A stretch of DNA of 2,799 nt. Origin: Escherichia coli. GTDB lineage: Bacteria; Pseudomonadota; Gammaproteobacteria; Enterobacterales; Enterobacteriaceae. The notes under the pieces were generated by a model. The model had not been told where the DNA came from, ran no database searches, and saw only the letters and a program-made list of their open reading frames with translations. This document shows positions 1-2,799 of the stretch, in pieces. The stretch lies in the NCBI RefSeq assembly GCF_003334355.1, contig NZ_QOWP01000071.1. One strand, 5' to 3'. Each line of letters starts with the position of its first letter. The stretch's first letter is position 1. A program made the translations under genes and the position numbers.

Positions 1-62
1 AATCGGTGGAGCTGCATGACAAAGTCATCGGGCATTATCTGAACATAAAACACTATCAATAA
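1..62 (+). CDS. insB: IS1 transposase InsB, C-terminal fragment (5' part lies outside the window)
   Basis: In-frame codons 3..59 followed by TAA at 60-62; peptide [20 protein letters not shown] matches the remembered InsB C-terminus. No start codon in window. Confidence 0.85.
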   Translation, partial: SVELHDKVIGHYLNIKHYQ

Positions 63-77
63 GTTGGAGTCATTACC
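55..77 (+). repeat. IS1 terminal inverted repeat (IRR), about 23 bp
   Basis: atcaataagttggagtcattacc is the reverse complement of the canonical IS1 end GGTAATGACTCCAACTTATTGAT; an exact inverted copy lies at 2669-2691. Confidence 0.9.
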
Positions 78-275
78 AGAAAATCGTTGTCCGTTAACTT
101 CCATATTAGCATAGAGATAACGCTTACATTTCATTAATGCCCATGGTAAATAGATACCTAGCGTTATAATCGTTAACAACACATTCACCACACAAATAAG
201 AAAATATCTCTCACCTGTACCATGAAAAACAAACGAATGGGACGGAACATCCATTTCATTAATAACTTGAGCCAT
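78..275 (-). pseudogene. yjgN: 5' fragment (66 codons) of an inner-membrane protein gene, probably yjgN (DUF898-type), truncated by the IS1 insertion at 77/78
   Basis: Minus-strand ATG at 273-275 opens a frame MAQVINEMDVPSHSFVFHGTGERYFLICVVNVLLTIITLGIYLPWALMKCKRYLYANMEVNGQRFS with a clear hydrophobic helix (YFLICVVNVLLTIITLGIYLPWAL). It runs without a stop straight into the IS1 repeat (..RFS|[13 protein letters not shown]..). Position divergent from yjgM fits the K-12 order argI-rraB-yjgM-yjgN as I recall it. Missing from the supplied ORF track, presumably because it has no stop in the window. Confidence 0.6.
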
Positions 276-285
276 AAAAATTCCC

Positions 286-311
286 TGAATTAAAAAATTC
301 ATTGATATAAT
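286..311 (+). promoter_or_regulatory. Candidate sigma70 extended -10 element (TGaTATAAT, 303-311) directly preceded by a TGAAT-N6-ATTCA palindrome (286-301) in the yjgN/yjgM divergent control region
   Basis: Exact TG-n-TATAAT at 303-311 on the + strand, oriented towards yjgM; no good -35, as is common for extended -10 promoters. A second perfect TATAAT lies at 437-442, 25 bp upstream of the yjgM ATG. Assignment is by sequence pattern only. Confidence 0.3.
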
Positions 312-467
312 TTATAGATACAGACAGTAAAATGTTCTGCCACGTTACAATACTCTTATCAGTAATAGGCTAGCAAAAACTTTATTGCTTTATAAGACGC
401 TTGCGCACGTAAGAAGAGAGTGGTATTAAACAAATGTATAATTACTTTATTTTTATTGGGTTAAACT

Positions 468-971
468 ATGAATAACATTGCGCCGCAATCACCTGTAATG
501 CGTCGCCTGACGTTGCAGGATAATCCTGCTATCGCCCGCGTCATTCGTCAGGTATCCGCCGAATACGGTCTTACCGCTGATAAAGGCTACACCGTCGCCG
601 ATCCGAATCTTGACGAGCTGTATCAAGTGTATAGTCAGCCTGGTCATGCATATTGGGTGGTTGAGTACGAGGGTGAAGTGGTCGGCGGCGGTGGGATTGC
701 GCCATTAGCAGGTAGTGAATCGGACATTTGCGAACTGCAAAAGATGTATTTTCTTCCGGCTATTCGCGGTAAAGGGCTGGCGAAAAAACTGGCCTTAATG
801 GCGATGGAGCAAGCACGAGAGATGGGCTTCAAACGCTGCTATCTGGAAACGACCGCTTTTTTAAAGGAAGCCATTGCGCTTTATGAGCATTTGGGCTTTG
901 AGCATATCGACTATGCGCTTGGCTGCACGGGCCATGTCGATTGTGAAGTGCGGATGCTACGCGAACTCTAA
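468..971 (+). CDS. yjgM: GNAT-family N-acetyltransferase (YjgM-like), 167 aa
   Basis: Complete ORF ATG 468 to TAA 969-971. Contains the GNAT acetyl-CoA-binding signature R-x-x-G-x-G ([10 protein letters not shown]) and the overall motif order expected for a GNAT fold. Length and position next to rraB match E. coli yjgM as recalled. Confidence 0.9.
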
Positions 972-1016: not shown

Positions 1017-1433
1017 TTAGTGGCGAACCCCGTCATCGTCTTCATCGACAAAATCTTCATCGTCGCCGTCTTCGCCATTGGGATCTTCAAAGTAAGTGCC
1101 CCAACCGTCGTACTCAACGTCAAATTTCTCCGCCAGCGTCATCAGTTGTTCAACCTGGGCATCGATCAGATCGGCATTCAACGCGCACTCGCTGAGGATG
1201 TCGCAGCAAATCACGATATCACCATCTTCAACTTCCAGCTCTTCTGGATCGGTCACTTCGTAACCGAGTTTAAACGCTTCAACTGCTGCTTTTTCCAGGG
1301 TTTCCAGATCGTCTGCGGAAAGATGGTGTTCGATGGTGTACAGCGCGTCCGGATCGCTGCCATCTTCCAGTAATTCTTCAATAATCAAACGTGTTTCTTC
1401 ACGCTGTTCTTCCAGTTGTTCCGGGTTTGCCAT
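1017..1433 (-). CDS. rraB: RraB, regulator of ribonuclease (RNase E) activity B; highly acidic 138-aa protein
   Basis: Complete minus-strand ORF (ATG at 1431-1433, TAA at 1017-1019) encoding [29 protein letters not shown]...[15 protein letters not shown], very rich in D/E. Preceded on the minus strand by AAGAGGAA, a good SD, about 6 nt from the ATG. Recognised as RraB (YjgD) by sequence and by position next to argI. Confidence 0.93.
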
Positions 1434-1594: not shown

Positions 1595-2599
1595 ATGTCC
1601 GGGTTTTATCATAAGCATTTCCTGAAATTACTCGATTTCACGCCAGCTGAACTCAACAGCCTGTTGCAGTTAGCCGCGAAGCTGAAAGCCGATAAGAAAA
1701 GCGGTAAAGAAGAAGCCAAACTCACTGGTAAAAACATCGCGCTCATCTTCGAAAAAGACTCGACTCGTACCCGATGCTCTTTCGAAGTTGCCGCATATGA
1801 CCAGGGTGCTCGTGTTACTTATCTCGGCCCAAGCGGCAGCCAGATTGGTCATAAAGAGTCGATTAAAGACACTGCCCGCGTGCTTGGTCGCATGTATGAC
1901 GGTATTCAGTATCGCGGCTATGGTCAGGAGATTGTCGAAACACTGGCGGAATACGCTGGCGTGCCGGTATGGAACGGCCTGACCAATGAGTTTCACCCCA
2001 CGCAGCTGCTGGCGGATCTTCTCACCATGCAGGAGCATTTGCCCGGCAAAGCATTCAACGAAATGACGCTGGTCTATGCAGGTGACGCGCGTAACAACAT
2101 GGGAAACTCGATGCTCGAAGCTGCGGCGCTTACCGGTCTGGATTTGCGTCTGGTCGCGCCACAGGCATGCTGGCCGGAAGCTGCGCTGGTTACGGAATGC
2201 CGCGCCCTGGCACAGCAAAATGGCGGGAATATTACGCTGACGGAAGATGTAGCCAAAGGAGTAGAAGGTGCTGACTTTATCTATACCGATGTATGGGTGT
2301 CGATGGGGGAAGCAAAAGAGAAATGGGCGGAACGGATTGCATTGCTGCGTGATTATCAGGTGAATAACAAGATGATGCAGTTGACCGGTAACCCGGAGGT
2401 CAAATTCCTCCACTGCCTGCCCGCGTTTCATGACGACCAGACGACGCTTGGTAAGAAAATGGCGGAAGAGTTTGGCCTACATGGCGGAATGGAAGTGACT
2501 GATGAGGTCTTCGAATCTGCCGCCAGCATTGTTTTTGATCAGGCGGAAAACCGCATGCATACCATCAAAGCGGTGATGGTCGCGACGCTCAGTAAATAA
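1595..2599 (+). CDS. argI: Ornithine carbamoyltransferase (anabolic OTCase), 334 aa
   Basis: Complete ORF with the OTCase catalytic signatures: STRTR carbamoyl-phosphate motif ([12 protein letters not shown]), HPTQ, DVWVSMG and HCLP ornithine-binding motifs. N-terminus [15 protein letters not shown] matches my recollection of E. coli ArgI rather than ArgF; upstream ARG boxes and rraB/yjgM synteny support argI. Confidence 0.95.
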
Positions 2600-2615: not shown

Positions 2616-2657
2616 GATGCCGGGAAATACAAAAACATCCCGGCATCACATTATTTT
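2616..2657 (+). terminator. Rho-independent terminator of argI
   Basis: Perfect 10-bp stem GATGCCGGGA (2616-2625) / TCCCGGCATC (2638-2647) with a 12-nt loop, followed by a T-rich tract (ACATTATTTTATG), 17 bp after the argI stop. Confidence 0.8.
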
Positions 2658-2668
2658 ATGCAGTGATA

Positions 2669-2691
2669 GGTAATGACTCCAACTTATTGAT
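2669..2691 (-). repeat. IS1 terminal inverted repeat (IRR)
   Basis: ggtaatgactccaacttattgat, identical to the reverse complement of 55-77. Confidence 0.9.
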
Positions 2692-2799
2692 AGTGTTTTA
2701 TGTTCAGATAATGTCCGATGATTTTGTCATGCAGCTCCACCGATTTTGAGAACGACAGCGACTTCCGTCCCAGCCGTGCCAGGTGCTGCCTCAGATTCA
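2684..2799 (-). CDS. insB: IS1 transposase InsB, C-terminal fragment (variant allele; 5' part outside the window)
   Basis: Minus-strand frame ends ...[16 protein letters not shown] with the stop at 2684-2686; it differs from the left copy by V->I plus one synonymous change. Confidence 0.85.

Follow-up and report, generated by a model that had tools for sequence, protein, structure and literature searches.

The window, by which we mean the whole 2,799-nt stretch of DNA analysed here, contains intact copies of yjgM, rraB and argI between the remnants of yjgN and yjgL, and ends in IS1 sequence on both sides (Table 1). The gene order and orientation are the same as those of the K-12 map, yjgL-argI-rraB-yjgM-yjgN-valS. 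The exact ArgI protein occurs very widely among E. coli assemblies, an exact-protein look-up finding it in 11,005 blocks. A GC-rich hairpin (GCCGGGA...TCCCGGC) was seen at 2619-2644, between the convergent argI and yjgL genes, and is probably a bidirectional terminator; the right-hand IS1 starts 24 nt past it. The Rfam scan of the window returned no match.

Table 1. Features of the 2,799-nt window, with positions, strands and the basis of each assignment
Feature	Position	Strand	Basis or remark
Left IS1 end	1..77	-	IRR end at position 77; element exits the window leftwards
yjgN' 5' fragment, codons 1-66 of 398, inner-membrane protein gene (DUF898)	78..275	-	K-12 alignment
9-bp IS1 target, one copy, CGATTTTCT on the gene strand	78..86	-	yjgN nt 190-198, codons 64-66 (R-F-S)
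Chimeric ORF, 66 YjgN codons plus 25 IS1 codons in the window	1..275	-	Complete ORF of 92 codons
Divergent yjgM/yjgN promoter region, intact, AT-rich, ~31% GC	276..467		Colinear with K-12 and other E. coli
yjgM, GNAT N-acetyltransferase gene, intact	468..971	+	167-aa ORF; annotated yjgM in colinear E. coli loci
rraB, RNase E inhibitor B gene, intact	1017..1433	-	138-aa ORF; annotation in colinear loci
argI, ornithine carbamoyltransferase gene (PGAP label argF), intact	1595..2599	+	334-aa ORF; K-12 argI position
yjgL remnant, final 13 nt including the TAA stop	2656..2668	-	Junction aligned to intact K-12 and other alleles
Right IS1 end, 131 nt, IS1SD-like	2669..2799	+	IRR end at 2669; element exits the window rightwards

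The sequence-only reading had proposed a yjgN-like ORF on the minus strand, starting at 273-275 and cut by IS1. This ORF is real: the minus-strand ATG at 275-273 opens a frame (MAQVINEMD...NGQRFS) of exactly 66 codons, running from 275 to 78, with the translation exactly as previously written. Through alignment with K-12, we found that the fragment is the N-terminus of YjgN, as proposed, being identical to residues 1-66 (of 398 aa) at 66 of 66 positions with E = 3e-47; at the DNA level 197 of the 198 nucleotides were identical, with 1 nt difference. A Pfam match to PF05987 (DUF898) is listed for the called 92-aa product. The reverse complement of window positions 1-77 matched, at 77/77 nt, the IRR terminus of an IS1A element (768 bp) that is annotated in E. 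coli MLI023K1, and the left copy carries the terminal inverted repeat of the IS1 family (GGTAATGACTCCAACTTATTGATAGTG...). Because of this complete match to the IRR end, the 77/78 boundary is exact, and the cut after codon 66 lies where it had been placed; the junction falls between codons, and yjgN is left exactly at the IS1 terminus. The gene and IS1 identities are both far beyond chance. The fragment retains a single strongly hydrophobic stretch at about aa 25-43 (Kyte-Doolittle 2.54), which supports the transmembrane helix predicted earlier. Only codons 1-66 of the full-length multi-pass YjgN (398 aa in K-12) are present, and yjgN here is a gene remnant and not a functional DUF898 member.

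The frame had also been described as open across the IS1 repeat, and following it to the first stop confirmed this. Past codon 66 it runs 25 more codons to the window edge, and a TGA sits 4 nt beyond the left edge, after 26 IS1 codons, so that the last IS1-derived residue (F) and the stop fall outside the window. This stop was read in the sister contig L010 (GCA_003293365.1, 2,902 nt; ...CAC CGA TTT TGA), which extends the window by 68 nt to the left and 35 nt to the right and differs from it at 2 of 2799 positions. The same stop was obtained when the fragment was joined in silico to IS1A, and the right-hand IS1 of the window itself shows the identical CGATTTTGA at 2740-2748. The product is thus 92 aa long, with 66 YjgN residues and 26 IS1-derived residues, and its tail is encoded on the strand opposite the final ~21 codons of insB, the stop of which lies 16-18 nt from the IRR end. 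In random sequence, 26 stop-free codons are expected with a frequency of (61/64)^26 = ~0.3; the open read-through is real, yet its length is unremarkable, as chance predicts. The exact 92-aa protein was found on 18 public contigs, and NCBI nr already lists the chimera as 'inner membrane protein [Escherichia coli]'. Users of such 92-aa records should be aware that they describe an artefact, a broken gene fused to IS1.

The yjgN start codon is intact, as are its Shine-Dalgarno-like AGGGA and the divergent promoter spacer over its full length. A simple sigma-70 consensus scan of 276-467 found no promoter. From the report of K-12 genomic SELEX, RpoD-holoenzyme and H-NS sites are placed in the yjgM/yjgN spacer, and the proposed K-12 yjgN promoter is TTGCCA-18-TATTGT (PMC3946193). 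The -35 hexamer of this proposed promoter (PMC3946193) reads TTGCTA in the window (369-374) against TTGCCA in K-12, and position 372 varies between the haplotypes that were compared. With promoter region and start codon both intact, it is plausible that the 92-aa chimeric peptide is transcribed and translated; no function is expected of this remnant.

We searched for the remaining ~330 codons of yjgN, whose whereabouts the sequence-only reading had raised. The results showed that 332 codons are absent from the window, and that in complete genomes with the identical junction they lie directly across IS1, as found in L003 and E47. L003 is a 4.76-Mb contig with the identical junction, in which yjgN' is followed by IS1, CGATTTTCT, 'yjgN and valS; its IS1 is 768 bp long and is flanked by a 9-bp direct repeat of yjgN nt 190-198. 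The RefSeq E. coli genomes E47 (NZ_CP121151.1) and D72 (NZ_CP035312.1) have the identical junction with the same 198-nt 5' fragment, and their RefSeq annotation gives an IS1A transposase together with two partial pseudogene pieces labelled 'DUF898 family protein, incomplete'. A full IS1 element stands at the target in L003, E47 and D72. In D72 (L033 2741-4562) yjgN contains two IS1A copies, of which one occupies the hot spot described below; they enclose only a 356-nt internal yjgN piece, and the gene has lost its 3' end. E47 and D72 differ from the window by 25 and 45 SNPs in the adjacent 2.6 kb and, unlike the window, have no IS1 at the argI/yjgL junction.

From these comparisons we consider it very likely that IS1 transposed into the chromosomal yjgN of an E. 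coli or Shigella strain. The IS1 transposase would have made a 9-bp staggered cut at CGATTTTCT (yjgN nt 190-198), an AT-rich hot spot, and the IRR end of IS1 would have been joined straight after yjgN codon 66. The 398-aa multi-pass inner-membrane protein YjgN (DUF898, no assigned function) would thereby be abolished, leaving behind a 92-codon ORF with 66 YjgN codons encoding one transmembrane helix, 26 antisense-insB codons and a TGA. A second IS1 would have inserted independently, in inverted orientation, 4 codons before the yjgL stop. No polar effect on the neighbours is expected, because yjgN is monocistronic and converges on valS. IS1 sequence in the window is limited to 77 nt of the left copy and 131 nt of the right copy; we infer that both are complete elements and that, in the genome from which the window comes, the remainder of yjgN follows directly after IS1. 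Of the earlier proposal of IS-mediated inactivation of the kind seen in Shigella-type genome decay, the inactivation itself stands, whereas the Shigella-type attribution is unproven, since the identical junction is carried by ordinary bovine and porcine E. coli (E47 and D72). The lesion is an ordinary IS1 pseudogenisation of an already annotated and catalogued kind, with its chimeric ORF already in nr, and it is of mild interest only, for the repeated insertion at exactly the same target in natural strains and for the IS1-bracketed argI block.

It is possible, though distinctly less probable, that the insertion was followed by an IS1-mediated rearrangement, with the left IS1 as the recombination joint and the 332 codons elsewhere or deleted. 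The window ends on either side in one of two mutually inverted IS1 copies, and in the draft assembly GCA_900094025.1 the same junction of yjgN' with IS1 (L004 6001-8621) leads on to a sulfatase gene, while the 'yjgN-valS part behind IS1 is found on another contig (L028 1-3944) together with Col-plasmid-like genes (Rop, colicin lysis). The separation of the yjgN halves in this assembly reflects either IS1-mediated rearrangement, plasmid integration or mis-scaffolding; the L004 and L028 joins come from a draft and could be mis-scaffolds through IS1, and L003, E47 and D72 all keep 'yjgN directly beyond IS1, which argues against a rearrangement. Rearrangement of the region is also reported in Shigella sonnei, where a lineage-specific inversion of ~20 kb spans valS-yjgN-IS21-IS1-yjgM-rraB-argF in an IS-rich genome, with IS1 plus IS21 between yjgN and yjgM (PMC12795559). 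Compared by published gene order only, S. sonnei resembles the window in having IS1 between yjgN and yjgM and the same neighbours, and differs from it in the presence of IS21 and in showing no IS1 after argF, where the window has its second IS1 (PMC12795559).

The 9-bp target is duplicated in both L002 (2992-3000 and 3769-3777) and L003 (6190-6198 and 6967-6975). In E. coli MLI023K1, IS1 occupies the same 9 bp in the opposite orientation, with IRL adjoining the 5' fragment and the duplication reading AGAAAATCG. A search of 5,426 complete RefSeq E. coli genomes found the window-type junction contiguous in 2 (E47 and D72) and the opposite-orientation junction in 6 (MLI023K1, MLI023K2, PRO_A-1412-6M-A, EC23HZZ201, HS-01 and TOE17). 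These six share with the window the target, the duplication (AGAAAATCG/CGATTTTCT) and the 66-codon truncation, but differ in that the IRL end adjoins the 5' fragment and gives another read-through tail. The element at the target is a ~95% variant of IS1 in TOE17; in HS-01 (L001 3001-3559) it is heavily decayed, at ~560 nt with many substitutions and indels, and could be either an old insertion or a low-quality assembly region.

By comparing the adjacent 2,591 nt, we defined haplotype groups A-E of the carriers. Group A consists of the window and L010, whose nearest relatives, L014 and L012, have an intact yjgN and are 3-5 SNPs away. Group B holds E47, L006 and L007 and also MLI023K1 and HS-01, whose IS1 has the opposite orientation, and its members are mutually within 3-5 SNPs; group C holds D72, L008 and L009; group D holds L003 and L004, at 0 SNPs from L024, which is without IS1; and group E is L005. 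The groups are 25-56 SNPs apart, with the exception of C and D (8 SNPs). For groups A and D, the closest relatives in which the target is unbroken differ by just 0-5 SNPs. SNPs start 70-140 nt from the junction, and the IS1 end varies among carriers between CAATAAG and CAGTAAG. Because the groups are far apart, the SNPs begin so near the junction and the IS1 ends vary, the spread of one ancestral insertion by recombination is unlikely. The same 9 bp carry IS1 in no fewer than four or five unrelated haplotype backgrounds, with the element in either orientation and of differing variants. We count at least about five independent insertions and take yjgN nt 190-198 to be a base-exact hot spot for IS1 in natural populations.

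The local GC content of the target site is 31-36%. IS1 reportedly prefers AT-rich targets (Meyer, Iida & Arber 1980; Zerbib et al. 1985), and the AT-rich setting of the hot spot fits this preference. We also considered a pseudo-IS1 end beside the target as the cause of the hot spot, which the comparison did not support: a single ATTACC is found 7 nt away from the 9 bp, but ungapped matches to the IS1 ends were no closer at the target than in the rest of yjgN. The repeated use of one 9-bp target offers a possible natural test case for IS1 target choice, and IS1 at this target is usable as a lineage marker, though prone to homoplasy.

Two-piece junction matches in complete genomes showed that the yjgN of many E. 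coli carries IS1 at further positions. The K-12 derivatives LS5218 and NCM3722 likewise have yjgN disrupted by an IS1 insertion, placed elsewhere in the gene than in the window, at MG1655 coordinate 4480807, which is about yjgN nt 1078, near the 3' end (PMC5699524). We applied exact look-ups with two variants of the 303-aa C-terminal YjgN ORF and obtained other lineages, with nonsense, IS5 or IS1 lesions, and no contig from assembly GCA_003293365.1. IS5 insertions at nt ~235 were found in L035, L040 and L041, a frameshift in L013, and the nonsense mutations E59*, Q63*, R64* and Y85* in L022-L025, L027 and L029. The confinement of the nonsense mutations to codons 59-85 is search-biased, as the downstream 303-aa ORF is called separately only if the 5' part of yjgN is broken; because the query finds only such 5'-broken genes, these positions show recurrence and not clustering. 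Loss of the DUF898 gene yjgN is thus recurrent among strains. In principle, this repeated loss, by IS1 at several positions including the orientation-independent hot spot at nt 190-198, by IS5 and by nonsense and frameshift mutations, could reflect selection against the DUF898 membrane protein in some niches and not target preference alone; we regard this as rather unlikely.

At the other end of the window, 2669-2799 and 1-77 form an inverted repeat, in which 2669-2745 is the arm pairing with the left copy. The right IS1 copy also has the IS1-family terminal inverted repeat and is identical to IS1A at 129/131 positions, the two differences being C->T at 2714 and 2722. Its best plasmid matches were 99.2% identical to elements annotated IS1SD. 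As plasmids of E. coli, Klebsiella and Salmonella commonly carry IS1SD, this arm is not diagnostic of the organism. The sister contig L010 shares the difference at 2714 and not that at 2722; the latter may be a consensus artefact, because the contig end falls in a multi-copy repeat. Compared with intact alleles, the right IS1 is inserted 13 nt before the yjgL end, 4 codons ahead of the stop, and cuts off the rest of yjgL. Upstream of it, a 25-nt similarity to another IS1 flank (E. coli strain 104, fec region) was considered and set aside as weak and chance-like. The right-hand junction was contiguous in 0 of the 5,426 complete RefSeq E. coli genomes, among which none had both junctions.

The two insertions leave yjgN'-yjgM-rraB-argI as a 2,591-bp block between inverted IS1 copies whose IRR ends both point into the block. 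Composite transposons of this build are known: Tn9 is an IS1 composite transposon, in Tn1681 inverted IS1 copies flank the ST toxin gene, and the K-12 argF segment is flanked by IS1. The window resembles them in having a short passenger between two IS1 copies, here present as their inner ends and inverted relative to each other as they are in Tn1681, and the passenger of the K-12 argF segment carries an ornithine carbamoyltransferase gene, as does the argI block. With IRL outward, the geometry would permit transposition from the outer ends, and the 2.6-kb block might then be a composite transposon or a duplicated, translocated copy, with an intact yjgN persisting at the native locus. We hold this to be very improbable. 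Unlike Tn9, Tn1681 and the argF segment, the block has its junctions at the native yjgN and yjgL positions, as two in-situ insertions predict, and no copy was found elsewhere. The plasmid search revealed no IS1-bounded copy of the block, its matches being chromosome-like records in which yjgN extends beyond the block; the absence of the right junction from complete E. coli genomes, noted above, and the lack of a second context for contig L010 also count against transposition. Less likely, too, than recurrent loss of yjgN under niche selection is that the argI-rraB-yjgM block represents an incipient composite transposon like the one presumed to have given rise to argF in K-12. Two in-situ insertions remain the best reading of the bracketed block.

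An assembly artefact, in which the contig end was misjoined to a collapsed IS1 repeat and yjgN is really intact, is the least probable explanation, for although each end of the window falls within a multi-copy repeat, the left arm measures exactly 77 nt, which would be a typical assembler k-mer overlap, and the right-arm SNP at 2722 is missing from L010, the same base-exact junction occurs in independent complete genomes and on the 18 public contigs, the expected 9-bp duplication is seen, and an artefact would not reproduce the IS1 terminus against the canonical target. With two in-situ insertions, the bracketing IS1 copies would explain why short-read assemblies break here and the locus assembles as a short contig of ~2.8 kb bounded by IS1 on both sides, and the inverted pair could invert the 2.6-kb block by homologous recombination.
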